NCBI GenBank assembly: GCA_964614965.1
Contig: CAZTNT010000001.1
Coordinates: 1 to 36,074, forward strand
Direction of reading: 5' to 3'
DNA: 36,074 nt
DNA from: an uncultured Lachnospiraceae bacterium
GTDB taxonomy: Bacteria; Bacillota; Clostridia; Christensenellales; UBA1242
The notes beneath the pieces were generated by a model, which had not been told where the DNA came from, ran no database searches, and saw only the letters and a list, made by a program, of their open reading frames with translations. Shown here piece after piece: positions 5,651-36,074 of the stretch (the first letter of the stretch is position 1; every line of letters begins with the position of its first letter). Position numbers and translations under genes: made by a program.

Positions 5651-5672
5651 ATTTCTAATCACCCCTTATGTT

Positions 5673-8239: not shown

Positions 8240-8245
8240 AATCTT

Positions 8246-8274
8246 ATTATACTAAAAATAAAAAGAATTAGCAA
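8246..8274 (-). promoter_or_regulatory. Sigma-A-type promoter positioned for a leaderless CPBP-CPBP-rlmH transcript
   Basis: On the minus strand: TTGCTA (complement of 8269-8274), 17-nt spacer, TATAAT (complement of 8246-8251), 6 nt (aagatt), ATG (complement of 8237-8239). No SD. Confidence 0.45.
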
Positions 8275-8346
8275 TAGTATATTTAAAATTAAATCTAGTT
8301 TTTTGATTTGTAAAACAAATTTGTAAAGAGTTTCATATATATTAAC

Positions 8347-8991: not shown

Positions 8992-9000
8992 ATATTGTTA

Positions 9001-9027
9001 AAAAAGCATAGATTTATATGCTTTTTT
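9001..9027. terminator. Bidirectional Rho-independent terminator
   Basis: AAAAAGCATA (9001-9010), loop gattta, TATGCTTTTT (9017-9026). It lies between convergent genes and overlaps the stop of the minus-strand gene. Confidence 0.6.
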
Positions 9028-9703: not shown

Positions 9704-9782
9704 ATTTCATGGTATGTTATTTTTCTAAATCTTGTTAAAATAAATTTATTTTTTTGCTAGCATTTAAAAATATTTTGTTATT

Positions 9783-9813
9783 AAATAAAAAAACAAAGCA
9801 CATTGCTTTGTTT
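9783..9813 (-). terminator. Rho-independent terminator after the kinase gene
   Basis: AAACAAAGCA (9791-9800) pairs with TGCTTTGTTT (9804-9813). On the minus strand it is followed by TTTTATTT (complement of 9783-9790). It overlaps the stop codon at 9813-9815. Confidence 0.5.
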
Positions 9814-10358
9814 TAGTTTATTTGTTTGTATTTTTTATATATTTTTGCAACAACCTCACTAGGTGTTAAATTGCTACTGTCAATCACATAATCATAATTG
9901 TTGGGATTTAAATTATTAACTTGATAAAGTTCTAAATATCTTTCATTTTCAACATTCCATCTTGTTTTTAGGTTGTTTATTGCTTCACTTAAAGTTGTGG
10001 ATTTCTCGGTGTCACGATTTGCGTTAATTAATCGTTCGCCTGCCGTTTTATCATCAACGTCGATGAAAACCTTGAAAGAATTGGGGATGAAGTTCCACGC
10101 AAGTCGAGAATCAATCACAATGTTTTCATTTGCGCGAGTTTGGCCGATTTCATAAATTTTGTCATCAATTAGTTTGTCAATCTGTTTAATTCGCGGATCT
10201 TGCTCTTGAAAAGCCAAAATGTTGTCATATCCAAATTGTTTTGCGTAAGCTCTAAACATATCTCCAGTGCAAATATATTCAAAACCATATTTTTTGCAAA
10301 ACTCTTTCGCTACTGTACCTTTTCCACTGCAAGGTTTTCCTGTTATTGTGATTATCAT
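9813..10358 (-). CDS. Cytidylate kinase-like P-loop NMP kinase (type-2/archaeal-like cmk family)
   Basis: MIITITGKPCSGKGTVAKEF (Walker A) with the ATG at 10358 preceded by AAGGAG (complement of 10367-10372), which overlaps the TAA stop of the upstream gene. The 22-codon N-terminal extension in the track has no SD. Confidence 0.65.
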   Translation of the reverse strand: MIITITGKPCSGKGTVAKEFCKKYGFEYICTGDMFRAYAKQFGYDNILAFQEQDPRIKQIDKLIDDKIYEIGQTRANENIVIDSRLAWNFIPNSFKVFIDVDDKTAGERLINANRDTEKSTTLSEAINNLKTRWNVENERYLELYQVNNLNPNNYDYVIDSSNLTPSEVVAKIYKKYKQIN

Positions 10359-17300: not shown

Positions 17301-20300
17301 CACTTTGTCCTGACACAACAACTTCTTCTGCTAATGGAGATGTGCAAATTAGAATTGACGTCTTGAAAAACGTGATAAGTAACTTGTTAAATTTAGACCC
17401 TGACACTCAAAATTTATATAATTTGTCTTTAATGCTCAACAATAATCCAAATGTGAAATGTGCTATAAATGTTGACCGTTCGAGTTATAACAAAAACACT
17501 CAAATTCAAACAATAGTTTTGAGAATTGAATTTGAAGATATGAATCTTGAAGAACCTGAAAATATGAAAATTACATTGTCAACATTAGAAGATGATGCTT
17601 ATGCTCAAGTTAATTTCAAAATAATTCCTCAAAGAATTAATAAAATTGAAGTTAAAAACTATTATTATCGCTTAGATGATAACCAAGAAAAAGTTTTAGA
17701 ATTATATGATGTATTAAAACCGAATGATTTCGGTTTGATGATCATTGACCTTGTTCCAAACAATGCATATTATGATTATCTTGAAATTAGCGATATAACC
17801 GGAAATGAAGAAATTGTTTTCATTCAAATTGATGGTGATGGAAAAGCTTATAACCTTCAAGATGTTTCAAGTGATGGAAAAGGAATTAAATTATATAACT
17901 ACAATTCATCAAGACTTTATGTTAGAACTCAAATAAGCAACACATATTCTTCAAAACTTCACACAATTGAAATTCGTGCTTATGCTTCAGACAGAACACA
18001 GTTGGGGGATTCTTACAGGAAACAAATTGATGTTAGAATGCTTCCTCAAATTGACATTAAATATCTTAAACCGGATGGTAGTGTTGGTGCAAGCCTAAAT
18101 TCAACAGATAATGAAACCAGCAAAGATGGATTATACCTTGCAACTGGTGTGGATGCAATTTTCACAATCACAACTCAAAATGCGGATGAAATTATTGTCA
18201 GCAAAGATGGCTCAAGTGCTGGTGATTATGAAATTGAAAAGATTACAGAAACACAGTATAGATTAAAAGCAACAAATAAAGTTGACATTGGAAACAAAAT
18301 AACACTTAAAGTGAAAGCAATTTCTGAAATCAATGCTAACGACACTGATGAAACTGAATGTTCAATCACTTTCACAATTGTTGATTTTGTGATTCATGGT
18401 GTGAGCGTTAACAGTAGCATTAACAACTTAACAACAAAAGAAATCTATGGATATTACAATAGAGACGTTAAATTAAATTTCTATTTTAGCAAAACAGACG
18501 TAAGTTACTACGATTCCTCATCAACAGGTGAGAAGTTCTGGGACACTGAATACAATTATGGTGATGCATATGATGAAACAGATGATAATTTAGTTAAAAT
18601 CTATTCAATTTTGCAAGCTTTGAATGGATATGATTCGGCTGGCAACCTTCAAGAAACAAACGACTACTTAATATTAAATAAAAATAAGAAAGAAACAAGT
18701 GGACAGTATGATGAAGACGAAATACTTAATCAAGGACAAGTTAGTGGGCAAAAAGTTCAACTTTATCAAAACGTGTTAACCGTTCAAGAAGGATATGATA
18801 AAGAAACAGTTGAAAAAGATGGTAAAGAAGTAGAAGTTGATTCTCCTAAATATTTAGCAGTTGCGTTTAAATTAAATTATGATAAAGAAGCACCTACACC
18901 GTCTTGGGAATTGGCAACATTAAATTCTAGCATTGATAGAGGTGTTGTTGACTACAGCTATATTGTTGATGTTAACTTTAAACTTAATTTTATGAATGTA
19001 ACGCAATGGGATAATCCTGAGGTTGTCAACAATGTTGAAGATTTCTATAACATGGAATCAGGAAAGCAATATATTTTGAACACCGATTTAACGCTTGAAA
19101 ATCACACTCCAATTGATGCGGATTTAGTTTACTTTGATGGAAATGGTCACACAATCACAATTCATAGTTTCTCAACGTTTGAAGGAACTCAAATGAATGC
19201 GGGATTGTTTGCACAAGTTTACCCTAACATGATTGTTAAAAATGTTAATGTGAAATATGTTAGCATGAATGTGAATGGTAACTACACCTTCGGTCTTGTT
19301 AAAGGTAAATCAAATGGTTCATATGAAGTTGAATATGCTGATTTATCTCAAGGTTCAGCAGCTTTAACAAATGCAAACTTTGGTGGTGTTTGTGCAGTTA
19401 ACAAGGGTATTATAACTAATTGTTATGTCTCAGGATTGATTGCTGTTACAGCTTCTGCTCTTGGAACAAGTGAAGCAATGAATCTCGGTGGTTTGGTGGC
19501 GGAAAATTCATCAACAGGTTACATAACAAACTCTCACAGCGAATTGAATATGTTTGCATTGGCAAATATTGGTGGATTTGTTAATTCAAATAATGGAAAA
19601 ATTGCTTCGTGTGGAGTGGAAGAAAACGCAACAATTTATGGTTATCAACCGAACTTGGAAAACACAATCACAGCTCAATTTGCAGGATTTGTTGTTCAAA
19701 ATGCTGGCGAAATTTCAATGAGTTATGTAAACTTAAATGCATCAAGAATTGAAATTGGTTATGCAAAAAAGAACATGGTAAACAATGAAATTGAGAACGA
19801 TTATTTACGCTTAGAAATAAATGGTGGTAAGATGTCTGTGAAAGACAGCTCTGCAGGATTTGTTTATTCAAATTCAGGAAATATCTATGATGCGTATGTT
19901 CAAATGACGGAAATTGGTGTTAACAATAACTATTTTGCAGGATTTGTTTATTCAAATTCAGGAAATATCAACAGGGCATATACTTATCTCAATGAAGGTA
20001 AAATTGACATTTCTAACACATTTATGTTTGCACCTTCAAAAACATCTGGAATTGAAAATAGTGTTGAATTTATGTCTTCAACATCTTCAAGTTATAATAA
20101 TGGAATTGATGGATTGGAAACAAAACCAATAGCAATTAGGTATTCACGATCTTTCTTTGAGACTTTAGGTTTTGCTTTTGGTGATAATGAGAGTGCTGTT
20201 TGGCAAACTTCGGCAGGTAATGCGCCAAAACTTGTTTCAGCAAAACGCCTGGAGTTTAAAGCGCTTACAATTAATTATGTTCCAGACAATGATGTTTCAG

Positions 20301-22134: not shown

Positions 22135-22716
22135 ATGAAAATTGATTACAACAAAATAATGCAAGAAGAAATAAGTAGTTTTGGTGAAAAGCCAAAACTA
22201 CTTTTGCATTGTTGTTGTGCACCTTGTTCAAGTGCTGTGATTGAGAGAATTAAAGAGTTTTTTGATATTACCTTTTACTATTACAATCCAAACATATTCC
22301 CGCAAGAAGAATATGTTTTGCGTCAAAGTGAATTTAAAAAATTGGGTGTTAAAGTGGTGGCGGAACAATATAACCATGAAGAATTCTTAAGGGTTATAAA
22401 AGGTAAAGAAAACGAAAAAGAAGGTGGAATTCGTTGTCAAATTTGCATCGCTGAAAGATTGGATAAAACTTTTCAGTATGCTATTGAAAATGGTTATGAT
22501 GTTGTCACAACAACTCTTTCGATTAGTCCACATAAAGATTGTGAATTTATAAATCAACTTGGTGAAAGACTGCAAGATAAGTATGGAGTTAAATATCTTC
22601 ATGCAGATTTCAAGAAGCAAAATGGCTATTTAAGAAGCATTCAAATCTGCAAAGAACTTGGAATTTATCGTCAAGATTATTGTGGCTGTGAATTTTCAAT
22701 TGAAAAGAAAAATTAG
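22135..22716 (+). CDS. queH: Epoxyqueuosine reductase QueH (DUF208 family)
   Basis: 193 aa. LLLHCCCAPCSS, YYYNPNIFP..EY, ISPHKD and the C-terminal YRQDYCGCEFS are the signature Cys/His motifs of QueH. Confidence 0.85.
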   Translation: MKIDYNKIMQEEISSFGEKPKLLLHCCCAPCSSAVIERIKEFFDITFYYYNPNIFPQEEYVLRQSEFKKLGVKVVAEQYNHEEFLRVIKGKENEKEGGIRCQICIAERLDKTFQYAIENGYDVVTTTLSISPHKDCEFINQLGERLQDKYGVKYLHADFKKQNGYLRSIQICKELGIYRQDYCGCEFSIEKKN

Positions 22717-22735
22717 TTTTAGCATATATAAACAT

Positions 22736-23752
22736 ATGTTAAACAAAAAGATTATATATAGAAATAATTTAATAAATAATATAAAGCAAGTCAAAAAAGA
22801 AAATCCAAATTCAAAAATTTGTGCAATGGTAAAGTCAAATGCTTATGGTGTGGGCGATAAGATTGTTGTTCAAACGCTTGAATCTTTTGTGGATTTTTGG
22901 GGAGTGGCTTGCTTTTTTGAGGCAAAGCGAATTTCAAGTTTAACTAAAAGACCTATTTTAATTGTTGGAGCATGTGGGAAAGATGAAGTTGATGAAAGAT
23001 TTTCATATTCATGCTTTGATTTGGAACAACTTGAATTTTTGATTTCATTAAACAAAAAAATAAATATTCATTTAAAGATTAACACTGGTATGAATAGATT
23101 TGGATTTAAAAACTTAAAAGATTTAAAGAAAGCATTAAAAATGATTTTAAATAGCAGGTTGAATCTTGAAGGAATTTTCACACATTTTGCCACAAACGAT
23201 GAATTTACACAACATCAAATGAATGAGTTTAAAAAATTTGTTCAGCTAACGCACACATTTGGGTTAAATCCAATTGTGCATGCAGATAATAGTTTTGTTA
23301 ACGAACAACAAAATCATCAATTAGATATGGTTAGAATTGGTTTTAGTTTATATAACAGATGTGATGGTTGGTTTTTGCCAGCAATAGAAATAAAAAGCAC
23401 AGTTGTTCAAATTCAAGATGTTAAAAAGAACGAATTGATAGGTTATAATTATAGGTGCGTGGCAAAAAGCAATATGAAAGTTGCGATAATGCCTTTAGGT
23501 TATGCTGATGGATTTGATATGAAATTTTTGGGAATAGAAATTAATATCAATGGAATTAAATGTAAAGTTTTAAACATATGTATGGATTGTTTTATGCTTG
23601 ATGTAACAAAAACTAACTTTAAAAAAGGGGATGAAATCTATTTGTTAAATAAATTTAATCCCCTGAAAGCTTATGCTGATTATGCAGAGACCTCAGTTTA
23701 TGAAGTTATGACTAAATTTTCTCATATGAGAGCAGAGAAAATTTTAATTTAA
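22736..23752 (+). CDS. alr: Alanine racemase
   Basis: 338 aa from the ATG at 22736. ICAMVKSNAYGVG contains the PLP-lysine motif (VKANAYGHG consensus). FTHFA and GYADG motifs are present. The track ORF starts at a TTG (22658) inside queH, which I reject. Confidence 0.85.
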   Translation: MLNKKIIYRNNLINNIKQVKKENPNSKICAMVKSNAYGVGDKIVVQTLESFVDFWGVACFFEAKRISSLTKRPILIVGACGKDEVDERFSYSCFDLEQLEFLISLNKKINIHLKINTGMNRFGFKNLKDLKKALKMILNSRLNLEGIFTHFATNDEFTQHQMNEFKKFVQLTHTFGLNPIVHADNSFVNEQQNHQLDMVRIGFSLYNRCDGWFLPAIEIKSTVVQIQDVKKNELIGYNYRCVAKSNMKVAIMPLGYADGFDMKFLGIEININGIKCKVLNICMDCFMLDVTKTNFKKGDEIYLLNKFNPLKAYADYAETSVYEVMTKFSHMRAEKILI

Positions 23753-24712: not shown

Positions 24713-24805
24713 AACAATGTAGATTAATGTCAAATGAAACAAATTATTGGTGAAAATTTGTGGCTTTGGCAACAAAATCATTTTGTGATATTAAGGGGTA
24801 TTTTT

Positions 24806-27229
24806 ATGGTCAACGTTTTTAAATATGTGGACAAGTTCTTCACATCATTGACAAATTATCTAACGTACAACTATATTTTTATTATCTTTATTGGATTATT
24901 TTTGTTCACTGCTTTATGTGTGATTTTTTTCACATCTCGTTCTTATGAAGCAAGATTAATAAAAGCAATTGATAAATTTAATGTTTATTTTATTGATAAT
25001 CCGCATATTAACGAGGAAAATTTGGTTGCGTTTAACGCAAAAATGAAGTCAAGAAAAGTTCCAAAGCAATTGAGAAAGAGTTGGCAACAATTCGTGCTTT
25101 ATCGTGAAGGAAAAGCAAGTTCTTATATGTCTTTTGAAAATTGCGTTGCAAATCCAATCAAAAACAGCACTTACACTCGTGATTTGAAAACAATGAATTC
25201 TTTTGCTTGGATTTTCAGCATATCTTCAATGATTTTAAATGCATATTATTGCTATGAAGTAGGCGATTTGGCTTCAATCTTGCAAAGCATTTTGCTCACT
25301 CCAGTTCTTATCCTATTATTGAATTACATAGTTCAAATTTTCTTAAATTTAAGACACAGCGCAATTGTTAGTGATTTATTCCAAAATTATCAATATTTTG
25401 AAGTTAACATTGACAAAGCAACTGAAACATTACCTGATTATGTTGATTATGAAGTTTTGTTTGACAAAAATGAAATTAAAAAAGGTATTCCAATTCTTTA
25501 TGCGTATCTTCAAAAACGTGCAGAAGAGGAACAACGAGAATTGGAAAGAGCTCGACTTAGAAACGTTGAACACGAAAAATTCAATTTTGATGATCAAGGG
25601 GTGGCTGCCTCTTTGGTTCTTGAAAGAGCGATGCAAGAAGCTGAAAACTATATTGCAGAACGTAAAAAATATAACCAAAACATTGGTCAAATTAACTCAG
25701 ATATCACTCAAGAAGATATGAATTATCGTGAAATCACGAAAGAATATAACCGTCAAATGCAAGTCAGCAAGGAAACATTTGAAAACTTCAAATCTCAATT
25801 GCAAGATGTTTCTTCTTCAATTGAAGCAAACTATTTAAAGAAGCAACAACAACAAGAATTGGATCGTCAACGTAATTTGGAACGTGACTTTGACACTGCA
25901 ACTGAAAGACATAAAAAAGTTATCGATGATTATCATGCAGAGCTTGATACTGTTGACAAATTTATTGCAACAAGTAGAAAAAATCTTGAAGATGCAATGA
26001 AGAGTGAGTTTAGTTCTTACAGTAGCAAAGTCTATGATGAAGCAAAGAAACTCGTTGAAGAAAGAGAAAAAGAAAAGATTGCTCAATTGAAGCAAGAAAT
26101 TGAAAATTTGGAAGAAGCTATTGTTGCAAAAAATCAAGAACTCGACAATGTTTATCAACAAAATCAAATTATGAGTGATAAACTTGAAGAGATTGGAATT
26201 GCTGTTAATGAACAACCGGGATATTCATCTTCATTTAAGCCAACAGAAACTGAACAACCTAAACAAGAACAACCAACATTTGAACCTTTAAAAGCAGAAC
26301 CTGTTGTAAATGAAGAACCAGAAGATGAAGAACCTCCAGTTGCTGAAATCAAACCAGAGTTCGTTGAACCTGTGGAAGAAACTCAAGCAGAAATAGAAGA
26401 AACTCCAGAAGAAACGGAAGAGGTTCAAGAAGAATTGGCGGAGCAAGAAACTGTTCAACCTGAAAACATTGAAAAAACTGAATATCTTTCTATAGAAGAA
26501 ATGATAGAACAATTAAAAGAAGAACAAGCAAATGAAGAAGCAACAGAAGAATTAAAAGAAGAAGATCAATTTTTTGATTTCGATGAGGAACTTCCATATG
26601 AACAATTAAATGCTGAAGATTTAAAACAAATCTCCACCGAATCAATTGATGATAGCATTGAAACAAAGCCAGTGTCAAAAAGGGGTAGACCAAGAAAGGT
26701 CGTTGATATGGCTCAAACTCAAGGGGAAAAGAAAAAGAGAGGTCGTCCAAGAAAAGAAAAGGTTGATGTTCAAGAACAACCAAAACGTAAAGTTGGTAGA
26801 CCTAAAAAATCAGAAAGCGTTGTTGAAACACAAGGATTATCAACTGAACCAAAACATGGAAGGGGAAGACCTAAAAAGCAAGTTGCTCAAGTCGAGGAAA
26901 AGGTTAAACTTGGTGTTGGTAGACCCAAAAAGGTTTCAACAGAAGAAGTGAAAACAGCTCCAGTAAAAAAAGGTCGTGGTCGTCCAAGAAAAGTTGTTGT
27001 AGAACAACCTGAGGTATCTCAAGTTAAGAGGGGTCGTGGTCGTCCAAGAAAAACTGAGCAAGAACAGGTTTCTAGCATTGCAAACGAAAAGGTTGAGAAT
27101 TTGTCAGACATCAAGGAAATTGATGAATATTTAAAAGAAATTGACAATCAAATTGCAGCTGAAAATGCAAAACTTGAAGAAACTCAAAGAGAACTTGCAA
27201 AAAAAGCTAAATTAAGAGCAAAAAAATAA
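24806..27229 (+). CDS. Membrane-anchored coiled-coil protein with an acidic E/P-rich spacer and seven C-terminal AT-hook (RGRP) motifs
   Basis: 807 aa from the ATG at 24806 (AAGGGG SD at 24793-24798). The upstream ATG at 24734 has no SD. It has three hydrophobic TM segments in the first ~200 aa, a charged heptad-like region, and an E/P-rich acidic region (nt ~26200-26650). Seven hooks follow at nt 26678-27052: KRGRPRK, KRGRPRK, KVGRPKK, GRGRPKK, GVGRPKK, GRGRPRK, GRGRPRK. It ends in a short coiled coil. Confidence 0.8.
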   Translation: MVNVFKYVDKFFTSLTNYLTYNYIFIIFIGLFLFTALCVIFFTSRSYEARLIKAIDKFNVYFIDNPHINEENLVAFNAKMKSRKVPKQLRKSWQQFVLYREGKASSYMSFENCVANPIKNSTYTRDLKTMNSFAWIFSISSMILNAYYCYEVGDLASILQSILLTPVLILLLNYIVQIFLNLRHSAIVSDLFQNYQYFEVNIDKATETLPDYVDYEVLFDKNEIKKGIPILYAYLQKRAEEEQRELERARLRNVEHEKFNFDDQGVAASLVLERAMQEAENYIAERKKYNQNIGQINSDITQEDMNYREITKEYNRQMQVSKETFENFKSQLQDVSSSIEANYLKKQQQQELDRQRNLERDFDTATERHKKVIDDYHAELDTVDKFIATSRKNLEDAMKSEFSSYSSKVYDEAKKLVEEREKEKIAQLKQEIENLEEAIVAKNQELDNVYQQNQIMSDKLEEIGIAVNEQPGYSSSFKPTETEQPKQEQPTFEPLKAEPVVNEEPEDEEPPVAEIKPEFVEPVEETQAEIEETPEETEEVQEELAEQETVQPENIEKTEYLSIEEMIEQLKEEQANEEATEELKEEDQFFDFDEELPYEQLNAEDLKQISTESIDDSIETKPVSKRGRPRKVVDMAQTQGEKKKRGRPRKEKVDVQEQPKRKVGRPKKSESVVETQGLSTEPKHGRGRPKKQVAQVEEKVKLGVGRPKKVSTEEVKTAPVKKGRGRPRKVVVEQPEVSQVKRGRGRPRKTEQEQVSSIANEKVENLSDIKEIDEYLKEIDNQIAAENAKLEETQRELAKKAKLRAKK

Positions 27230-27627: not shown

Positions 27628-29799
27628 ATGTTTAGAACAATCTCAAACAAACTTTTGATGGTGTTATATTTTGTTGTTGGTGCACTGATTTTGGAAGCAC
27701 TAACTTTTTCCATCTTAGATTTGGGATTTATGCCGGAATATTTTTGGTATAATTTCTTTTTAATCTTAGTTGTTGCAATCACTGTGTTTATAATTCCAAA
27801 TTTCACAGCTCAATATGTGATTTACACAATAATTTTGATTTTGCAAGCTGTTTTAGCATACATAAATTATTCACTTAGTCGTGTTTATGGAGATTTAATT
27901 TCAATCGAAATGGTAAGATTAATCGGTGAAGCAGGTGCTGCCATGACGTCAAGTTTTGTGTATATGGCTGTTTTGTTGGAACTTGTTCTTGTTTGTATTT
28001 TTATTGCGCTAATGGGTGGGCTGTTGTTAAAATATTGTAAAAAAGATAAGAATAACATCAAACAACATTTTTCTATTTTTAGCATTATTATAATAATTAG
28101 TGTTCAATTGTTTGCTGTTGGATTTTCAATTCAAACACGTGAGCGAGTTAATGCAATGTCAAGTTTAACAGATGTGGAATATGCATTAACAGATGAATTT
28201 TTGATGAACACTTCAATTCTTAAAACAAGCAGTTACACAAAGTTTGGAACATATGGCTATTTCACCAACATGATTGTTAATTCAATTAGAAATGATGGTC
28301 AGACTATTGAAAAAGCAACGATAGATTATTTTAATTCTGGTGAAATTTATGGAACAGAAAATAATAAAAGTGACGTTTTTGGAGTGGATAGTGGCAATAA
28401 TGTCATAGTTGTTATGATGGAATCTCTTGAATGGTTTGGTTTTGGAGACGGAATGTATGACTCGCAATTTAACAATCTTTCTCCAGAATTTATTCCAAAT
28501 CTTTATTCAATCATGTTTGGAGATGATTATGAAACCGACACAAGCAATGATAATTTGAACAATGATTCTATTCTTGCAAAAAATTTCTTTGCAAAATCAA
28601 AAACAAACATGAGTGAAGGTCAAGGAATTATAGGTAACTATCCTATTGCTCAGCCATTGACAGATGTTGTTAGAAACGACACTGCAACAAAACATGCATT
28701 AGGTTATTCAATGCCACATGTGTTAAAAAATTTAGGATATAACACAAGTTATGTTCATTCTCATGACATTTCGTTCTATAGTAGAGGAAAAACACATTCT
28801 TATCTCGGCTTTGACACTGTTATTGGCAAAGATGGTGTTAAAGATGAGAATGGAAATTATATTTACACTGGCAATAACTTAGATTTTGACAATTGGGCAG
28901 CAGAAGGAGAATTTGTTGAAAATGCAATTGATCACATTGTTCCCACTGATCGAACAAAACCATTCTATACGTTCTATTTAAATGTTTCATCACACGGTGC
29001 ATACACAGCCAAAGATAATACCCACGATGGCGATGCAAACAAGTATTATTACTATGTTAAATATGGCGAAGATGATTGTGAAATAAACGGATCTGGAAAT
29101 TGGCAATTGTCAAAACCAGAAAGCGAAGCAACAAAAACAGAATGGTATCAAAATGTTCTTGAAAATCACTCTAAAATTGCTGAAGATTTGGTTTATTATC
29201 AATGTGGTGTTAAGGGTCTTGATGATGCATTGGGAGTTATCATCAACAAACTGAAAGAATATGATATATATGAAGAAACCACAATGTTGTTATATTCAGA
29301 TCATTACGCATACTATGATAGTTTATCGCATATATACAAAGGTTTGAGCACAACAAATAATAACAATAAAGAATTGAACACAATTCCAATGATAATTTCA
29401 AGTCCAGGAGTTAAACAATATAATTCAACATCAGAAGCTAAGTACTTAATAAACACGCGTTTCACATCTGCTTATGATGTTGTTCCAACCCTCTTTGATT
29501 TGCTGGGAGTGAAATTTAATGAAAATCTTTATGTTGGTCAATCTATTTTCAGCCCATCTGACGTGGTTTACACTGAAAATGATGTAACAAAAGATATGAT
29601 TGTTTACTATTCAAACACAGGTGGTTTGTTTGGGGATGGAATTTACACCTTTGATTTAAAAACCATAGTTACAGAGCACAATTACAGCGAAGAGACGGTT
29701 GAACTTTTCAAAGGACAATGCACAAATTTACTCACCAAAATCAATTTTATAACATTCCTAAATCGTTATAATTTGTATCATAAATTAACAAATGTTTAA
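27628..29799 (+). CDS. LTA synthase-family (sulfatase/alkaline-phosphatase superfamily) membrane transferase
   Basis: 723 aa. About five N-terminal TM helices precede a large extracytoplasmic domain whose start (NVIVVMMESLEWFGF) resembles the conserved LtaS/sulfatase metal-site strand. Confidence 0.8.
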   Translation: MFRTISNKLLMVLYFVVGALILEALTFSILDLGFMPEYFWYNFFLILVVAITVFIIPNFTAQYVIYTIILILQAVLAYINYSLSRVYGDLISIEMVRLIGEAGAAMTSSFVYMAVLLELVLVCIFIALMGGLLLKYCKKDKNNIKQHFSIFSIIIIISVQLFAVGFSIQTRERVNAMSSLTDVEYALTDEFLMNTSILKTSSYTKFGTYGYFTNMIVNSIRNDGQTIEKATIDYFNSGEIYGTENNKSDVFGVDSGNNVIVVMMESLEWFGFGDGMYDSQFNNLSPEFIPNLYSIMFGDDYETDTSNDNLNNDSILAKNFFAKSKTNMSEGQGIIGNYPIAQPLTDVVRNDTATKHALGYSMPHVLKNLGYNTSYVHSHDISFYSRGKTHSYLGFDTVIGKDGVKDENGNYIYTGNNLDFDNWAAEGEFVENAIDHIVPTDRTKPFYTFYLNVSSHGAYTAKDNTHDGDANKYYYYVKYGEDDCEINGSGNWQLSKPESEATKTEWYQNVLENHSKIAEDLVYYQCGVKGLDDALGVIINKLKEYDIYEETTMLLYSDHYAYYDSLSHIYKGLSTTNNNNKELNTIPMIISSPGVKQYNSTSEAKYLINTRFTSAYDVVPTLFDLLGVKFNENLYVGQSIFSPSDVVYTENDVTKDMIVYYSNTGGLFGDGIYTFDLKTIVTEHNYSEETVELFKGQCTNLLTKINFITFLNRYNLYHKLTNV

Positions 29800-29836
29800 A
29801 ATTTTCATTAATTTCACAAAAAAATTTTAAAAACAG

Positions 29837-29865
29837 TTGACAACGAGTTTTCTTTGAGTTATAAT
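29837..29865 (+). promoter_or_regulatory. Perfect-consensus sigma-A promoter of tRNA-Asn
   Basis: TTGACA (29837-29842), 17-nt spacer, TATAAT (29860-29865). The mature tRNA starts at 29881. Confidence 0.6.
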
Positions 29866-29880
29866 AAACTCGTTTTCAAT

Positions 29881-29955
29881 GCCTCGATAGCTCAATGGTG
29901 GAGCAACCGGCTGTTAACCGGTAGGCTACAGGTTCGAGCCCTGTTCGGGGCGCCA
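29881..29955 (+). tRNA. tRNA-Asn (anticodon GTT), CCA encoded
   Basis: Acceptor stem GCCTCGA / TCGGGGC (one G-U pair). D-arm TAGCTCAATGGTGGAGCA. Anticodon stem-loop ACCGG-CTGTTAA-CCGGT. T-arm ACAGGTTCGAGCCCTGT. Discriminator G and CCA at 29953-29955. Confidence 0.9.
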
Positions 29956-29963
29956 GAAAATCA

Positions 29964-29987
29964 CTCAGGAGAAATCCTGAGTTTTTT
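29964..29987 (+). terminator. Rho-independent terminator after tRNA-Asn
   Basis: CTCAGGA (29965-29971), GAAA-type loop, TCCTGAG (29975-29981), then TTTTTT (29982-29987). Confidence 0.7.
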
Positions 29988-30000
29988 AATGATTAATTAA

Positions 30001-30062
30001 GAGTGAATAATGAAGAATTGTGGAAAGTTTGAAGTGATTTTCTAATTCTTCATTTTTCATTC
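30001..30062. repeat. Long imperfect inverted repeat (19-bp arms, 24-nt loop) between the tRNA and the four-helix-bundle gene
   Basis: GAGTGAATAATGAAGAATT (30001-30019) pairs with AATTCTTCATTTTTCATTC (30044-30062), with one mismatch and one G-U pair. Confidence 0.6.
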
Positions 30063-30072
30063 TTCATTAAAT

Positions 30073-30101
30073 TTGACAAAATCAAACAAATGTGTTAAAA
30101 T
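30073..30101 (+). promoter_or_regulatory. Consensus sigma-A promoter positioned for a near-leaderless four-helix-bundle gene transcript
   Basis: TTGACA (30073-30078), 17-nt spacer, TGtTAAAAT (30093-30101), 9 nt, ATG at 30111. No SD. Confidence 0.5.
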
Positions 30102-30110
30102 AAAAATACT

Positions 30111-30449
30111 ATGAAAGAAAATTTATTAATTTCAAAATCTAAAGATTTTGCATTAAAAATTATTGCACTATGCAAAAATATTAAAAATCAAGGAAGTTTA
30201 ACAAATCAACTACTTCGTTCAGCAACTAGCATAGGTGCAAACATTCACGAAGCAAATTATGCTCAAAGCAAAGCAGATTTTGTAAGTAAATTGCAAATTG
30301 CTTTAAAAGAGTGTTATGAAAGTGAATATTGGATTGATTTGCTAATTTCAGCAAATATAATAGGAGAAGAAAATAAAAATTTATTAGATGATTGTATTGA
30401 AATAAAAAAGATTTTAATCAAATCTTGCAAAACTGCAAAAGGTGAATAA
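30111..30449 (+). CDS. Four-helix-bundle protein (23S rRNA intervening-sequence protein / Avd-like family)
   Basis: 112 aa. QLLRSATSIGANIHEANYAQSKADFVSKLQIALKECYESEYWIDLL matches the family signature (R.A.SI.ANI.EG....S..DF..KL.IA.KE..ET.YWL.LL). Confidence 0.8.
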   Translation: MKENLLISKSKDFALKIIALCKNIKNQGSLTNQLLRSATSIGANIHEANYAQSKADFVSKLQIALKECYESEYWIDLLISANIIGEENKNLLDDCIEIKKILIKSCKTAKGE

Positions 30450-30470
30450 TTGCTTCAGTTCGTCAAATCG

Positions 30471-30500
30471 TATCTCATCCATAAAGGTGAGATATTTTTT
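30471..30500 (+). terminator. Rho-independent terminator after the four-helix-bundle gene
   Basis: TATCTCATC (30471-30479) pairs with GGTGAGATA (30486-30494), 9 bp including one G-U. Followed by TTTTTT (30495-30500). Confidence 0.6.
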
Positions 30501-30533
30501 ATTTCCTACAATAATTCATAAATATTTTAAACT

Positions 30534-30559
30534 AAATAGACTTATAGTCTATTTTTTTT
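30534..30559. terminator. Second palindromic hairpin plus T-run (terminator or operator) upstream of the 1,492-aa gene
   Basis: AAATAGACT (30534-30542), TAT, AGTCTATTT (30546-30554), followed by TTTTT. Confidence 0.4.
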
Positions 30560-30616
30560 ATACAACTATTGATTTTTTATTTTGTGTATGGTATAATTAA
30601 ATTAAGAGGTAAAAAA

Positions 30617-33600
30617 ATGGCAAATAAAGAAGTCACTATTTATAAAGATAGATACCAAACATTAGAATACGCTAAATTAACTCGAACTCAAAAAGAAAAA
30701 TTAAAACTCGACGAAGTTTTTATAAAGTTTAATGGAAAAGCTGTTCCGCTTACTGAATTGTCTGTTATAATTAGTTCAGATGAAAAAACGGTTACAATGC
30801 GTAAATTAATTTCGATTGAGGATTTGCAAGAGAATATTGTTCAAAAAGCTGTCTGTGTGGGAACAAATGCTGAGGCAAAATTAACTGCAAACGATTATTT
30901 GCTGTTCACTCAAGCTGTTCCAGAATTCAAAATTTATACTTCACATTCAATCAATCCAAAAGGCAAAGAAATTCCGTATGGATTGAAAAGAACTTTGAAA
31001 GTGGAAGAAGCAACAGAAGGTGAAAAAGAAAAATATCGTTATGTTTTGCAACAAGGTAAATGGGAATTTGTTAAAGAAAATGATATTTTCTATTTTGATG
31101 GGGCAATCATAAAGCCATTTAAGGATTTGCCAGAAGATGTTGACCTTTCAACAATTCAATTGTTTGATGCGGAATATAAACAAATCACAAGTGTTTACAC
31201 AGGCAAGGCATACACATTTAAATCTCTAGTTCATGAAGAGGCTTACGAACAGTTTAATCCAACAACAAATGAGAAAAAGTCTTATATTTTAAAAGTTGAT
31301 GATAAATTATTGACAGATAGAGATTTTGAATTAGATGTTGAAGGAAAAACAATCACAGTTGATTCTCATCCGGTTGTTTTTGATAGATTCTACACAGAGC
31401 AAGAATATGTTCAAATTGAAGAACCAAAACCCAATTCGTCAGATATGCAAAAAGTTCACAAGAGAAAGGTCAGAAACTTTCAAACTAATGTTGACGGGAA
31501 GTTTGTTGCATTAACAATTCATGGCCAAGTTAAAATGGTTGACATTGAAAATCTTTATGATAGCAAAGGAAATAAAGTCACAGATTTGTCAAAAATGGTT
31601 GGAAAAAGAGTTAGAATTACGGAAGGTGACAAAGTTGTTGCAACTTCAGATTTCCTAACCTTCGAACAAGCAACCAGACGTTTCGACTCAATCAAAAGTC
31701 ACCAAGAAGTAAGTGGTCAAGCAACCGAAACATCTTTATTAAGATTAAATGATGGTAATTATGTTAATGAACTTGAATCAGTGCAACCAATTGCTTATAA
31801 ACTTGCGGATGACTCTTCAACAGATTTTGACAAGTTGTTAGTAGAACAAGTGGTTGGAACTGCAAAGAAATATGTTATTGTTGATAAGGATTTCTTGAGA
31901 AAAAGACCTAAAGGTTTCAATTTAAGCAGAGTTAAAAAACTTAAAAGATGTGCTTGGAAAGATTGTGATGTTATGCAATCTAAATCACAAAGACTTTCTG
32001 CTAAAGATAGAAAAACTGCCATTGAAGAATGCAGAGTTGTTGGAAAAGTAAGTTTTGGAGATGAAGTTCTTCCAACTGTTGATAAGAACACTCAATTTGA
32101 ATCATTTTTAACAGCATATAAAGAAGGTAATTACTATCTTGAAGATGTGGCGGTTGGAGATCAAATTAAAAAGATTGAAACTCCAGGGAAAAGATACGAA
32201 AACACTGACACATTCTACATGCATGATAAAGCTGCAGATAGTGTGTCATACAGAGCTTTGGAAACTCAAGATTTAACATTTGAAAACGGAAAAATCACTG
32301 GTAAACCAAAATATAATGTTGGCAAAGCAATTTGGGATTCTTATTCAAAAGGTTTTAAGCCAGCAGTTTATGCAACCGCAATAATTCCATTCTTTGGTGT
32401 GCTTCCTCTAACAGCCCCATTGTCAGTTGTTGCTGCTGTTGGCGTTGTGGGTATGATTCCAGCAGTTCCAATTTATCATATAATCAAAGGTGTTTTCAAA
32501 AACAACACTTTTGGTAAGTTAAAACGCGCATTAGGTAAATATAAAGATAAAACTGAAACAAACAGAGATATTGACGCAAACAACATTGAAAATGAACTTA
32601 AAATTTTAATGAATAAAAGTTCAAGCTTCACTCCAGAACAAGTAAATGATTTTTACAGTTCAAGAATTTTACCAAAAGTTGCGTCACTTTATCAAACAAC
32701 CAGTAACAATGCTTTGAGAATGGTTGATGGAAAAGCCAAAGTTGATTCAAGCAATGTTAATTTAGCAATTGATCAATGTGAAGAATATCGTGAAAATGCA
32801 AATCAAAGAACAACTTGTTCAAGAAGATTGAAAAGAGCACAATCTCAATTTGATCGTCAACAAAAAATCATGGATGATCTTGAAGCTAGAGGAAAAACTC
32901 CATCGAAGTTCCGTCAAAAAAGATATGATAATGCGAAAGATACTTTAGATAAACGTCAAGAAGCGTTTGATAAAGTTGAAGCAGATTATTTAGAACTTAT
33001 GAATGCAACTTTTGGTGAAGATTACAAAAAAGATGCAAGAGCGGATGATTTTATGAATTTAACAACCGGATTAAAAGTGTTTATAGAGTTAACCAAATTT
33101 AAAGATTCTTCATTGTGGGAACAATTTGCTGATTTAGGCTTATCACATGATGAAATAAAAGCAATGTTGTCATTTAACATTAAAAAAGGTTTAATGATTG
33201 ACGGAAAATCGGTTTTTGACAAAGATTTGGAAAATAAAAGACACTTTAAAAATGAAGGCTGGAAAAAGCTTAGAGAAAGAATCTTAAAAGCATGTGAAAT
33301 CGAGTCTTCAAATCTCATGGGTGAACGCGTTGATAAAGCAGAAGTGGTTGAAGAAGTTCCATTGGAAAAAATCCCATTAGAACTTGATGAAACAATTTCT
33401 AGGGATGTGATTGTTCAATTATTAACTGATTATCTAAATGCTGATGAAAAGATTACTACAAATTCTGGTGAATTAACTTACTTACAACAACTTGAAACTT
33501 CGTTAAATGCTAAATTAGAAGCATTAAATAACAATTTAAAGAACGAAGATTTAAAGGAAGATGAAAAAACATTAATTAATAATAGCATTCATGACACAAA

Positions 33601-35095
33601 AAAATCTTTGCAAATAATGAGTTCTGCAATTGAAGCATTTAAAAAATCAATTGAAGAATTAAACAATGTAAAAACATCAAAACAAGTTGAAATTCAAAAA
33701 CTAGAACCACAAATTCTTGAAATGATAGAATCTGATGAAGAGCTTAAAGAATTATATGAAAAATATAAAACTTCTCTAAATATCAAAAATGAAAAAGATG
33801 CGGACTTGGATGTTGATAAAGATGTTGTTGATGAAGAAACTCCAGTTGTTGAAAAAGTGAATGTTGAGTTTGTTATTAATCATATAAGTGATATTGAAAA
33901 GTTCTTAACTGAAGAAGAAAAATTAAGAAAAGTAATTTCAGATAAGGAATTGGAAATTAAGCAACTTTCAAAACAAATTCTTGAAGTGAATGCAAAGAGA
34001 ATAAAAAAAGAACAAGAGTTAAGGAACGGAACAACAGAAGAAAAGAATAAAGAACTTCAAGAAATTCAAAGCGATTTAGAAAAACTTAAACAACTTAGAG
34101 AAAAATATACAACAGAGTTAAAAGGGTTAGAAACACAAAAAACCCAATATAATGCGGAGATAAATAGACTCGAGAAAGAAATTGCGGATATGAAAGGTCA
34201 AGACCCAGTTATTGATAAAATAATTGATGCACGCGAAAAACAAAAAGAAAGAGCAGATAAAGAAGTGGAAAGAGCTTCGCGTGAAGCACTTGACGCTATG
34301 ACAAGAGAAACTGATTTAAGAAAATTAATACGTGATTTAGGTTTAGAAAAAGATGCTCTTGAAGCGCAAAATCAAGACTTGCAAAGTAGATTAATTTCAA
34401 ATGATAAATTGATTAGTGGATTCAAAGGTTCTATGTCAAAGGTTGATGAATCAATTGCTCAAATTGAAAAAGATATCAGCTTAATTGATGAACAAATTAA
34501 AGCAAAGCAAAAAGAATATGACGCTTTGTTAACAAAAATTGAAAATAGCACAAATTTAACACAAACAAACAAAGAAATTGAAGCTTATCAAAAACAATTA
34601 AAAGCAATATCTTCTCAAATCAGTCAAAAGAGACTTATTTTAGATTCTCTTAAGATTGAAGCAGAGAAATTTAAAAATCTATGGAAAGAGGCTTTGATTC
34701 CTGAAGGAGAAACAACACACGAGGAAAATCAAAAACGTGTTGAAAAAATTTCTGAACTTATTGCTTCAACTGAAAGTAAATTAAATCTTATTAAAGATTT
34801 AGAGATTAAGAAACTTAAAGGAAAGAAGAAAAAAGAATTTGATGCTAACATAAATAGTGAAGATAACTTAAAATATCTCTTGATTGATAGAGATTCTGGA
34901 CTATTTGATTATTTGAATGAACAAGGAATCCACCCAACTGATAAAGAAATTGAATCAGCTATAGATTTGATTGATAGTAAGCATTCAGAGGGTGTAAAAG
35001 CAACTTCAAGGTCAACAAAGGTAGTTAACAAAATTTTAATTGAAGGTCAAGCATATATCACTAAGGTATTATCTAAAGGTTACAGCAATTTTTAA
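30617..35095 (+). CDS. 1,492-aa orphan protein: ~580-aa N-terminal domain, central TM hairpin, ~850-aa C-terminal coiled coil
   Basis: ATG at 30617 with an AAGAGGT SD at 30604-30610. The track start at 30569 is a TTG without an SD. Two adjacent hydrophobic helices (AVYATAIIPFFGVLPLTAPLSVVAAVGVVGMIPAVPIYHII) lie at nt ~32358-32490. The C-terminal half is a long K/E/L/Q-rich heptad-like sequence. I see no Walker A or other catalytic motif. Confidence 0.85.
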   Translation: MANKEVTIYKDRYQTLEYAKLTRTQKEKLKLDEVFIKFNGKAVPLTELSVIISSDEKTVTMRKLISIEDLQENIVQKAVCVGTNAEAKLTANDYLLFTQAVPEFKIYTSHSINPKGKEIPYGLKRTLKVEEATEGEKEKYRYVLQQGKWEFVKENDIFYFDGAIIKPFKDLPEDVDLSTIQLFDAEYKQITSVYTGKAYTFKSLVHEEAYEQFNPTTNEKKSYILKVDDKLLTDRDFELDVEGKTITVDSHPVVFDRFYTEQEYVQIEEPKPNSSDMQKVHKRKVRNFQTNVDGKFVALTIHGQVKMVDIENLYDSKGNKVTDLSKMVGKRVRITEGDKVVATSDFLTFEQATRRFDSIKSHQEVSGQATETSLLRLNDGNYVNELESVQPIAYKLADDSSTDFDKLLVEQVVGTAKKYVIVDKDFLRKRPKGFNLSRVKKLKRCAWKDCDVMQSKSQRLSAKDRKTAIEECRVVGKVSFGDEVLPTVDKNTQFESFLTAYKEGNYYLEDVAVGDQIKKIETPGKRYENTDTFYMHDKAADSVSYRALETQDLTFENGKITGKPKYNVGKAIWDSYSKGFKPAVYATAIIPFFGVLPLTAPLSVVAAVGVVGMIPAVPIYHIIKGVFKNNTFGKLKRALGKYKDKTETNRDIDANNIENELKILMNKSSSFTPEQVNDFYSSRILPKVASLYQTTSNNALRMVDGKAKVDSSNVNLAIDQCEEYRENANQRTTCSRRLKRAQSQFDRQQKIMDDLEARGKTPSKFRQKRYDNAKDTLDKRQEAFDKVEADYLELMNATFGEDYKKDARADDFMNLTTGLKVFIELTKFKDSSLWEQFADLGLSHDEIKAMLSFNIKKGLMIDGKSVFDKDLENKRHFKNEGWKKLRERILKACEIESSNLMGERVDKAEVVEEVPLEKIPLELDETISRDVIVQLLTDYLNADEKITTNSGELTYLQQLETSLNAKLEALNNNLKNEDLKEDEKTLINNSIHDTKKSLQIMSSAIEAFKKSIEELNNVKTSKQVEIQKLEPQILEMIESDEELKELYEKYKTSLNIKNEKDADLDVDKDVVDEETPVVEKVNVEFVINHISDIEKFLTEEEKLRKVISDKELEIKQLSKQILEVNAKRIKKEQELRNGTTEEKNKELQEIQSDLEKLKQLREKYTTELKGLETQKTQYNAEINRLEKEIADMKGQDPVIDKIIDAREKQKERADKEVERASREALDAMTRETDLRKLIRDLGLEKDALEAQNQDLQSRLISNDKLISGFKGSMSKVDESIAQIEKDISLIDEQIKAKQKEYDALLTKIENSTNLTQTNKEIEAYQKQLKAISSQISQKRLILDSLKIEAEKFKNLWKEALIPEGETTHEENQKRVEKISELIASTESKLNLIKDLEIKKLKGKKKKEFDANINSEDNLKYLLIDRDSGLFDYLNEQGIHPTDKEIESAIDLIDSKHSEGVKATSRSTKVVNKILIEGQAYITKVLSKGYSNF

Positions 35096-35102
35096 AAAAT
35101 AG

Positions 35103-35131
35103 TTGACATTATTAATCTTTAACTATATAAT
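35103..35131 (+). promoter_or_regulatory. Perfect-consensus sigma-A promoter of the glyQS T-box leader
   Basis: TTGACA (35103-35108), 17-nt spacer, TATAAT (35126-35131). Confidence 0.65.
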
Positions 35132-35137
35132 GTAAGT

Positions 35138-35294
35138 AATCTAATAAGCAAAGTGGCGATTTGCTTGGAGGCGCTCAAATGGCGTTCGCGTGTCTCGGCG
35201 TAAAAGAGTAAGTAAGGTGGGTATATCCAATTAGGGTGGAACCGCGGTATTGAGTTATCGTCCCTATGCAATTTATTTTGCATAGGGATTTTTC
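35138..35294 (+). promoter_or_regulatory. T-box riboswitch leader (glycine-type, short form) with intrinsic terminator
   Basis: Conserved T-box sequence AATTAGGGTGGAACCGCGG at 35229-35247. The terminator is TCCCTATGCA (35261-35270) / TGCATAGGGA (35279-35288) plus TTTTT, and its 5' arm competes with the T-box for an antiterminator. Several GGC triplets in the stem I region (for example 35153-35155, 35197-35199) could be the Gly specifier. The downstream gene is glyQS. Confidence 0.8.
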
Positions 35295-35322
35295 TTGCAG
35301 GAAACTAGCCCTTTGTAAAATA

Positions 35323-35481: not shown

Positions 35482-36074
35482 ATGAATAATTTAACAATGG
35501 ATAAATTAGTAAGTTTATGCAAAACAAGAGGATTTATTTTTCAAGGAAGTGAAATCTATGGCGGAATGGGAAACACTTGGGATTATGGTCCAATTGGTGT
35601 GGAACTTAAAAATAACATCAAGCGCGCATGGTGGAAGAAGTTTGTTCAAGAAAGCAGAAACACATATGGAGTTGATGCTGCAATCTTAATGAACAGAACC
35701 GTTTGGGAAGCAAGTGGTCATGTTGCAAGTTTTGGTGATCCAAAAATGGATTGTAAGGAATGTAAAACTCGTCATAGAGCAGATTCTATTATCGAAGATT
35801 ATTGCAGAAGACATAACTTGGAAGATGTTAAACCAGATGCAATGACAAAAGAAGAATTAATGCAATTTATCGACGAACATAAAATAAATTGTCCTGTTTG
35901 TGGAAAGCATAATTTCACTGAAATCAGAAACTTTAACCCAATGTTTGAAACTGCTCGTGGTGTTGTTGACGAAAACCAAAACAAAATTTATTTGCGTCCT
36001 GAAACTGCTCAAGGTGAATATGTTAACTATTTGAATATTCAACGTAGTATGAGAGCAAAAGTTCCATTCGGAAT
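35482..36074 (+). CDS. glyQS: Glycine--tRNA ligase (class II, homodimeric GlyQS type), N-terminal 197 codons; continues past the right edge
   Basis: ATG at 35482 with an AAAGGAGAG SD at 35467-35475. The translation MNNLTMDKLVSLCKTRGFIFQGSEIYGGMGNTWDYGPIGVELKNNIKRAWWKKFV...RPETAQG is the highly conserved GlyQS N-terminus. Confidence 0.9.
   Translation, partial: MNNLTMDKLVSLCKTRGFIFQGSEIYGGMGNTWDYGPIGVELKNNIKRAWWKKFVQESRNTYGVDAAILMNRTVWEASGHVASFGDPKMDCKECKTRHRADSIIEDYCRRHNLEDVKPDAMTKEELMQFIDEHKINCPVCGKHNFTEIRNFNPMFETARGVVDENQNKIYLRPETAQGEYVNYLNIQRSMRAKVPFG

Follow-up and report, generated by a model that had tools for sequence, protein, structure and literature searches.

A fast-evolving, previously unannotated protein family with a predicted membrane hairpin and a coiled-coil arm of variable length in uncultured gut Clostridia

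The window analysed here is a stretch of 36,074 nucleotides from contig CAZTNT010000001.1 of an uncultured Lachnospiraceae bacterium (assembly GCA_964614965.1). Near its end lies an open reading frame (ORF) of 1,492 codons on the forward strand, running from the ATG at 30617 to the stop codon at 35093-35095. The encoded protein, hereafter the target, belongs to a genuine, conserved and previously unannotated family. The best explanation is that genome-reduced gut Clostridia (Onthoplasma / UBA1242) inherit this membrane protein vertically and that it is specific to their lineage. The family is more ordinary than an earlier note on this DNA had proposed, and no new mechanism is indicated yet. 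The ORF is accompanied by a ribosome-binding site, a promoter and an upstream terminator, so that from its sequence the target is a real, expressed-looking gene:

30470..30495, (+): terminator-like hairpin closing the upstream 23S-rRNA-IVP-family gene (10-bp stem, then a T-run)
30569..30597, (+): sigma-70-type promoter TTGATT-17-TATAAT with an extended -10 TG, a consensus match
30604..30609, (+): putative ribosome-binding site AAGAGG, 7 nt 5' of the ATG; GAGG is kept upstream of homologues
30617..35095, (+): whole coding sequence, 1,492 aa plus stop; the start fits the homologue alignment

The open frame reaches 5' to a TTG at 30569, and the first in-frame ATG is that at 30617. This ATG was taken as the start because AAGAGG stands at the spacing given above, the promoter falls inside the TTG extension and the homologue alignment begins there. 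The window is low in G+C (26-36%), and the stop-codon frequency indicates that an open frame of 1,492 codons cannot have arisen by chance in DNA of 30% G+C. The hairpin at 30470-30495 isolates the transcription unit of the target from the upstream gene. Ten loci were read, including relatives only 23-31% identical to the target. In nine of them the ATG is preceded, at 17-22 nt, by a wider promoter motif, ATTGATTTTT-N11-TGnTATAAT (window 30567-30597, and upstream of the homologues in loci L001, L002, L004 and L006-L010). An exact-pattern search found the motif once per locus in the seven matched loci, always directly upstream of the homologue. The motif is conserved although the proteins behind it share only 25-48% identity; as far as a consensus argument goes, this suggests housekeeping-type transcription. 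The non-consensus bases of the target promoter are kept across species (ATTGATTTTT, not TTGACA), whereas other promoters of the window use TTGACA, and their retention may reflect tuned expression or a regulator site. The family alignment showed purifying selection on specific residues, and the keeping of a 4.5-kb gene in a genome of <1 Mb implies selection.

The protein had been regarded as an orphan in the earlier note, a label that does not survive database searches. An indexed protein search returned six relatives of 1,011-1,584 aa, and an exhaustive phmmer search of 1.84 billion cluster representatives (50% identity) with aa 1-660 returned 70 proteins at E <= 0.001, 33 of them at E <= 1e-30. 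Three indexed homology searches returned only 7, 5 and 1 matches compared with the 70 of the exhaustive search, likely because the candidate list was saturated by coiled-coil words. Nearly all full-length members have 1,000-1,700 aa, each with a single hydrophobic segment of ~45 aa near residue 550-700. The named members are annotated as 'hypothetical protein' and come from metagenome-assembled genomes (MAGs) of Candidatus Onthoplasma sp. or Clostridia bacterium. When one genome per GTDB species was scanned, relatives turned up in four Onthoplasma MAGs and in one 'Clostridiales bacterium' MAG, and in no other genome. No tblastn match was found in 50,697 phage records or in 72,556 plasmid records, and no relative was found among IMG/VR and JGI metagenome contigs. 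A match of the N-terminal domain to a phage or conjugation protein, named beforehand as the result that would speak against the earlier reading, thus did not appear in the phage, plasmid and viral collections.

Onthoplasma belongs to the Christensenellales according to NCBI and is placed in the GTDB family UBA1242 (PMC12306168). Members of UBA1242 are uncultured inhabitants of animal guts with genomes mostly <1 Mb, from which most biosynthesis is absent; they are predicted to depend on other cells, and sporulation genes are unexpectedly retained (PMC12306168). In chickens, the abundance of Onthoplasma/UBA1242 is negatively associated with body weight (PMC13155120). The genes neighbouring the target in the window are 68-87% identical to their counterparts in Onthoplasma loci, which places the window in the Onthoplasma / UBA1242 group. 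The family is thus unnamed, fast-evolving and apparently confined to uncultured gut Clostridia with tiny genomes.

The domain map was derived from family alignments, within-family profile searches, a simple heptad score and two AlphaFold2 models resting on 7-sequence alignments. The model of aa 1-730 has a predicted local distance difference test score (pLDDT) of 69.6 and a predicted template-modelling score (pTM) of 0.49; that of aa 570-1492 has a pLDDT of 71.6 and a pTM of 0.29. The predicted parts are as follows:

30617..32341, (+): N-terminal region, aa 1-575, several small beta-rich modules with no fold match in PDB/BFVD
32363..32488, (+): transmembrane helical hairpin, aa 583-624, from hydropathy, with conserved Gly/Pro and a tight central turn
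32534..33301, (+): membrane-proximal domain, aa 640-895, helical with a beta hairpin, not a heptad coiled coil
aa 896-921: acidic linker
33380..33790, (+): coiled-coil block 1, aa 922-1058, from AlphaFold2 helices (922-974, 981-1028, 1041-1058) and the heptad score
33791..33850, (+): acidic disordered linker, aa 1059-1078, net charge -7, pLDDT <50 and no secondary structure
33851..34801, (+): coiled-coil block 2, aa 1079-1395, from AlphaFold2 (helices of 58, 53, 114, 46 and 33 aa)
34844..35092, (+): C-terminal domain, aa 1410-1492, four short helices with no PDB/Pfam match

The beta-strand-like character noted earlier for the N-terminal ~580 aa agrees with the AlphaFold2 model, in which strands make up 45% and helices 14% of the N-terminal 566 aa. 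The best conserved part of this region is its membrane-proximal half (aa ~329-562), and some N-terminal modules are duplicated in individual relatives. The positions conserved in at least 85% of 53 members are G122, R125, G329, T348, Q351, G380, E385, P391, C450, Q454, C472, Y501, Y506, R526, D531 and D537. The first two belong to the motif (I)PYGLKR at aa 119-125 (30971-30991), in which G122 is kept in 94% and R125 in 89% of the 53 members; the AlphaFold2 pLDDT is <50 there, and these residues might serve as a docking strand or as a short motif for interaction. Internal or tandem repeats were found neither in the target protein nor in its gene; a single weak hhalign pair in the N-terminal region (aa ~139-170 with ~290-321, probability 16%) was rejected.

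The C-terminal side of the hairpin differs from its earlier description as an uninterrupted coiled coil of ~850 aa. It comprises a ~250-aa non-heptad domain, ~450 aa of interrupted rod and a four-helix end domain. The membrane-proximal domain has an AlphaFold2 pLDDT of mostly 80-93 and a weak heptad score, carries the motifs DKTxxNR and SNNxL...DGKAKV...N(A/V)NLA, and its profile matches essentially all full-length members. Within the rod, coiled-coil block 2 is broken at GQDP 1194-1197. The C-terminal domain, with the motif INSEDxL...DIExxIxRIxxKH...GQxY(I/L)T, occurs in 20 family members (~40%). A role as a DNA binder was considered, as relatives are basic there, and set aside; the domain of the target is acidic (pI 5.2). 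The earlier statement that the protein lacks any Walker A motif holds in substance only: the string GLMIDGKS at aa 858-865 does fit the pattern. However, it lies in predicted strands and its K and S are not conserved in homologues, so it is a chance match and the conclusion that the protein is no ATPase stands.

The sole hydrophobic stretch of the target spans aa ~580-627 (nt ~32357-32491), in agreement with the two hydrophobic helices placed earlier at nt ~32358-32490, and the N-terminus is hydrophilic, which confirms the reported absence of a signal peptide. Among 38 members the hydrophobic segment measures 37-47 aa (43-45 aa in 34 of them) and is nearly free of charge, with means of 0.6 K/R and 0.1 D/E. 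Its 15-residue flanks are basic, with means of 3.3 K/R and 0.7 D/E on the N-side and of 4.1 K/R and 0.9 D/E on the C-side; in the target the C-terminal flank reads KGVFKNNTFGKLKRALGKYKDK and is strongly basic. G594, P597, P601 and P618 are invariant among 7 sequences. By the positive-inside rule, basic flanks stay cytoplasmic. Thus, the uncharged hairpin, its basic flanks and the lack of a signal peptide on the 580 residues before the anchor predict two spans with both termini inside. The earlier proposal of a hairpin that leaves both halves on the cytoplasmic side is supported by these features of the 38 members, from which the topology is predicted.

Comparisons across the family showed large differences between its parts. 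Distances from the membrane-proximal domain to the C-terminal domain, or to the end of the protein, form a continuum between 56 and 681 aa; the median is 271 aa, and the target, with 517 aa, ranks among the longer forms. In the short forms P0005 and P0006, the membrane-proximal and C-terminal domains are joined by ~60-70 residues. The closest relative is most similar to the target in the C-terminal domain (61% identity), followed by the N-terminal region (49%), the membrane-proximal domain (48%) and the rod (30%). This range of lengths, together with the presence of the C-terminal domain in only ~40% of members, indicates that the conserved core is made up of the hairpin, the membrane-proximal domain and the adjoining half of the N-terminal region, and that the rod is an expendable, variable arm. 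The suggestion of a 'ruler' is weakened accordingly, since continuous variation and loss of the rod in many species, some members being essentially rod-free, make a fixed ruler unlikely. The N-terminal 640 aa are only 29-48% identical between loci. In contrast, the N-terminus of the adjacent glycyl-tRNA synthetase (GlyRS) is 91-99% identical among the other loci and 73-74% identical to that of the window, and the LtaS-like and Zn-peptidase neighbours are 68-87% identical.

The chromosomal position of the gene is fixed. In all ten loci glyQS directly follows the homologue on the same strand, and rplI and leuS come farther downstream. The usual upstream order is alr, a Zn-peptidase gene, a gene for a membrane protein of ~800 aa, DUF1858 and an LtaS-like sulfatase-family gene. 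Between the LtaS-like gene and the target lies a stretch of genome-specific content (window 29800-30560; L001 6786-10000; L008 7100-10000; L009 2954-10000; L010 ~8100-9900). In the window it holds a tRNA-Asn (29881-29955) and the 23S-rRNA-IVP-family gene (30111-30449), and elsewhere Zeta-toxin/AAA_33 and AAA_15/AAA_21 ATPase genes, a PemK toxin gene, glycosyltransferase genes and other genes. As the target keeps its place while the sequence farther upstream varies, it is more likely a core gene of the chromosome than mobile cargo. It thus borders a variable island, which may be an integration hotspot, without being part of it.

The window encodes an M14 carboxypeptidase (4655-5662, -), a MurJ/polysaccharide-flippase-like protein (2399-3904, +), an alanine racemase (22658-23752, +) and the LtaS-like protein (27628-29799, +), indicating that the organism makes a cell wall. 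The comparison with mollicutes drawn earlier therefore does not apply. Two further proteins of the window are large. In the product of an ORF of 3,564 aa (11399-22093, +), an N-terminal signal peptide with a lipobox-like VVFSAC|G is the only hydrophobic segment; N, S, T, G, I and V are abundant, and Pfam gave no match. This ORF, which occupies ~1.2% of a genome of <1 Mb, may encode a giant lipoprotein or adhesin of the cell surface. A protein of 831 aa (24734-27229, +) has N-terminal transmembrane helices, a coiled coil at aa ~255-490, an acidic linker and a C-terminus with about eight GRPRK AT-hook repeats. It resembles a tether between membrane and DNA and is conserved at 71-80% identity upstream of the target in the Onthoplasma loci L001-L003.

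Searches against known families gave no real match. Pfam scans of the target, 37 relatives and isolated domains at E up to 10 returned sub-threshold coiled-coil matches only, and NCBIfam, PHROGs and PADLOC gave no real match for the target. Sequence searches of the PDB with the whole protein and with profiles of the N-terminal region and the C-terminal domain returned nothing below E 0.29. The absence of a recognisable N-terminal motif, reported earlier, is thereby borne out by Pfam, PHROGs and PDB sequences. The fold search proposed earlier for the N-terminal region was run with Foldseek and gave no PDB/BFVD match: neither the N-terminal model against PDB and BFVD nor the C-terminal model against PDB had a match with E <0.02 or a TM score >0.13, although similarities of small domains may have been missed with multi-domain query models of moderate confidence. 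Most sub-threshold matches pair the rod with other coiled coils (SMC, Rad50, JetC, LmuB, Nuf2). In PADLOC, the target and its closest relative match JetC/LmuB weakly and inside the rod only (E 7.6e-06 and 9.3e-06), and the distant relative P0038 matches LmuB at E 1.6e-08 and 32 bits, with its best stretch at aa 443-808, outside the rod. The relative P0003 carries a precomputed Pfam tag, PF28422.1, that was not reproduced by Pfam scans at E up to 10. The large domains are unrecognised folds, matched by no known sequence family or solved fold.

The closest architectural analogues of the target, in layout only, are mitofusin/Fzo1, atlastin and the bacterial dynamin-like proteins. With mitofusin and atlastin it shares a cytoplasmic N-terminal region, a two-helix hairpin and a heptad region returning on the same side, and the two-helix hairpin with both flanks in the cytoplasm that marks the dynamin superfamily is predicted for the target family as well. 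However, the 38 members have no Pfam GTPase match, no GxxxxGK[ST] is conserved among the aligned homologues, the beta-rich N-terminal region matches no known fold, and nothing in the target points to membrane remodelling. Like EzrA, a membrane-anchored cytoplasmic division regulator of Firmicutes, the target has a long helical soluble part. In EzrA a single N-terminal transmembrane helix precedes the spectrin-like repeats and no large domain comes before the anchor, whereas the target has a central hairpin after 580 residues; the Pfam EzrA model matched neither the target nor its 37 relatives. DivIVA/GpsB have a lipid-binding N-terminal domain and no transmembrane segment, in contrast to the hairpin of the target, which has no Pfam match to them.

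The likeness to SMC, MukB, RecN, Rad50 and JetC is confined to sub-threshold matches in the rod (aa ~1093-1410), which is about as long as one SMC arm. NCBIfam SMC/Rad50-type models scored 18-30 bits against cut-offs of 300-730 (SMC models 18-28 against 567-729, rod only), Pfam SMC_hinge matched neither the target nor its 37 relatives, and the target has no Walker B, no LSGGQ and no ATPase heads. The similarity thus reflects shared coiled-coil composition and not common ancestry, and the earlier conclusion that the protein is not EzrA, DivIVA, SMC or another known family stands, no such signatures having been found. Mycoplasma HMW2 and the TIGR04523 proteins are likewise very large, lineage-specific and fast-evolving coiled-coil proteins in genome-reduced, host-dependent relatives of Firmicutes. 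The target is not matched by TIGR04523 (cut-off 270 bits); two of its relatives, P0002 and P0038, reach 34.9 and 37.3 bits, confined to the rod. Mycoplasma helix-rich proteins are not known to have a central hairpin or a beta-rich N-terminal region, and the cell-wall genes of the target's host (alr, MurJ-like, LtaS-like) further set it apart. Golgins offer a functional analogy, with a membrane anchor, a long coiled coil of variable length and a small distal domain able to capture a partner; however, they are eukaryotic and tail-anchored or GRIP-bound, whereas the target has a central anchor and its core at the membrane, with no relation in sequence or fold. By analogy, the closest functional counterparts would be membrane-anchored coiled-coil tethers. 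A membrane anchor and long helices are predicted in the target; membership of the scaffold and tether class would further call for an extended coiled coil that self-associates and binds a partner at a distance.

The favoured explanation is that the target is a cytoplasmic, hairpin-anchored membrane scaffold or tether with an arm of variable length, a tentative reading with a probability of roughly 0.45. The central hairpin of 43-45 residues would enter the cytoplasmic membrane and expose only a tiny outer turn, so that both large halves would remain in the cytoplasm at the inner membrane face. The working core at this face would comprise the hairpin and the parts on either side of it, namely the best conserved half of the N-terminal region and the ~250-aa helical domain. 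From this core the coiled-coil arm would extend and present the four-helix C-terminal domain to a distant cytoplasmic partner. The arm is elastic in evolution; its ~450 residues here could span ~67 nm when fully extended (0.1485 nm per residue) or about half of that if folded back at 1194-1197. Expressed from the conserved housekeeping-type promoter, the protein would hold or position its partner relative to the membrane. The gene, its family, the domain map, the properties of the hairpin, the conserved position and promoter and the lack of known homologues are established by the analysis, whereas the topology, the oligomeric state, the tether function and the partner are all inferred.

Several observations weigh against this explanation. 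The AlphaFold2 models are of moderate confidence (pLDDT ~70) with poor domain packing and a low-confidence hairpin, and the topology rests on prediction. Many members have neither a long rod nor the C-terminal domain, so 'tether' may fit only a subgroup. The target evolves far faster than its neighbours, a pattern commoner in conflict or surface-exposed proteins than in housekeeping scaffolds. Finally, the roughly one dozen conserved polar residues and two cysteines of the N-terminal region could equally mark an enzymatic or ligand-binding site.

The last of these observations is the basis of the strongest rival, a membrane-anchored enzyme or sensor in which the N-terminal polar residues form a catalytic or ligand site at the inner face and the helices serve oligomerisation or signal relay. 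A cluster within aa 329-537 comprises positions that 85-98% of 53 divergent members retain (T348, Q351, E385, C450, Q454, C472, Y501, Y506, R526, D531 and D537), the rod and the C-terminal domain are dispensable in many members, and an LtaS-like sulfatase-family membrane enzyme is often encoded nearby. However, no enzyme or sensor family was matched in Pfam, NCBIfam, PDB sequence profiles or Foldseek, and no nucleotide-binding motif is conserved. The LtaS-like neighbour is separated from the target by the variable island and is absent from some loci. An enzyme or sensor is unlikely, although it is the rival to be taken most seriously.

Fast evolution could also be expected of a surface stalk, held at the membrane by a single-pass anchor or exported in another way, whose rod and C-terminal domain would form an extracellular fibril contacting a partner cell or the host. 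Streptococcal M proteins are surface fibrils with fast evolution and variable rod length, and both traits are pronounced in the target family. The predicted dependence of the host lineage on other cells would fit such a role (PMC12306168). However, two spans fit into the hydrophobic stretch, at whose centre a Gly/Pro turn is conserved, and the basic C-terminal flank (mean 4.1 K/R per 15 residues; here KGVFKNNTFGKLKRALGKYKDK) argues against export. Pfam scans of the target and its relatives found no cell-wall-binding, LPXTG or S-layer domain, and the 3,564-aa lipoprotein of the window is a far better surface candidate. A stalk is improbable.

The chances are similarly slim that the target is a morphogenetic protein of sporulation or division, a lineage-specific stand-in for a lost scaffold at the septum or the forespore membrane. 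Scaffolds of this kind are often lineage-specific, membrane-anchored and rich in coiled coils. UBA1242 has kept its sporulation genes (PMC12306168), and a Spo0A_C-domain gene lies near one homologue. However, the promoter resembles, by consensus match, a housekeeping sigma-70/sigma-A promoter with an extended -10 and not a sporulation-sigma promoter. Pfam gave no homology to EzrA, DivIVA, SpoIVA, SpoVID or similar proteins, and no division or sporulation gene is a conserved neighbour.

An anti-phage defence protein or toxin-like effector, with an infection-sensing N-terminal region and a membrane-damaging hairpin, is very improbable. Transmembrane effectors are common in defence systems, the family evolves fast, and the target borders an island where Zeta-toxin/AAA_33, AAA_15/AAA_21 and PemK genes are located in other genomes. 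However, the position of the target is fixed in every locus while the island contents change, and the PADLOC matches of the target are coiled-coil noise against the JetC and LmuB rods. Defence genes usually spread horizontally, whereas no relatives were found beyond one bacterial family.

The remaining rival, a mobile-element remnant such as a phage tape-measure, conjugation or surface-exclusion protein, is effectively refuted: tape-measure proteins are long and helical, can carry central hydrophobic segments and resemble the target in these respects, but the target has no match in PHROGs, the BFVD folds, the phage and plasmid records or IMG/VR, its neighbours are housekeeping genes (alr, glyQS, rplI, leuS) with no phage genes nearby, its N-terminal 575 aa are beta-rich, unlike tape-measure proteins, and, set against PrgA-like proteins, it has a core chromosomal position and no signal peptide, Pfam match or plasmid relative.

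Beyond the scaffold or tether itself, a more specific role can be imagined, for which the odds are long. The family would form the inner, cytoskeleton-like part of a cell-contact or feeding structure in the partner-dependent UBA1242, a hairpin platform whose arm organises the cytoplasm under an attachment site, convergent with the terminal organelle of Mycoplasma; the N-terminal and membrane-proximal domains would then be new folds. In this role the target might work with the 3,564-aa surface lipoprotein and the membrane-anchored AT-hook protein of the window. UBA1242/Onthoplasma bacteria are uncultured, widespread in animal guts and thought to live off other cells (PMC12306168). The gene occupies ~0.5% of such a genome at a fixed position and is preceded by a conserved promoter, which suggests importance for the building or the interactions of minimal cells. 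The domain map, the conserved residues and the promoter provide a starting point for the cell biology of UBA1242/Onthoplasma and for naming a new protein family. If the target is an ordinary lineage-specific scaffold, the value lies mainly in annotation.

Two observations concern the glyQS gene downstream of the target. Its leader (35094-35296, +) matches the T-box model weakly (38.5 bits against a gathering score of 93, E 3.5e-07) and contains a promoter with the perfect sequence TTGACA-17-TATAAT (35103-35131) as well as a terminator-like hairpin (35260-35289). Not every locus has such a leader, since in locus L009 glyQS begins 14 nt past the target homologue. The GlyRS N-terminus of the window (35482-36074, +) is 73-74% identical to those of L001-L006, among which identity is 91-99%, yet the LtaS-like and Zn-peptidase genes of the window are 86-87% identical to those of L001. 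This discrepancy may mean recombination or replacement of glyQS, or uneven evolutionary rates.

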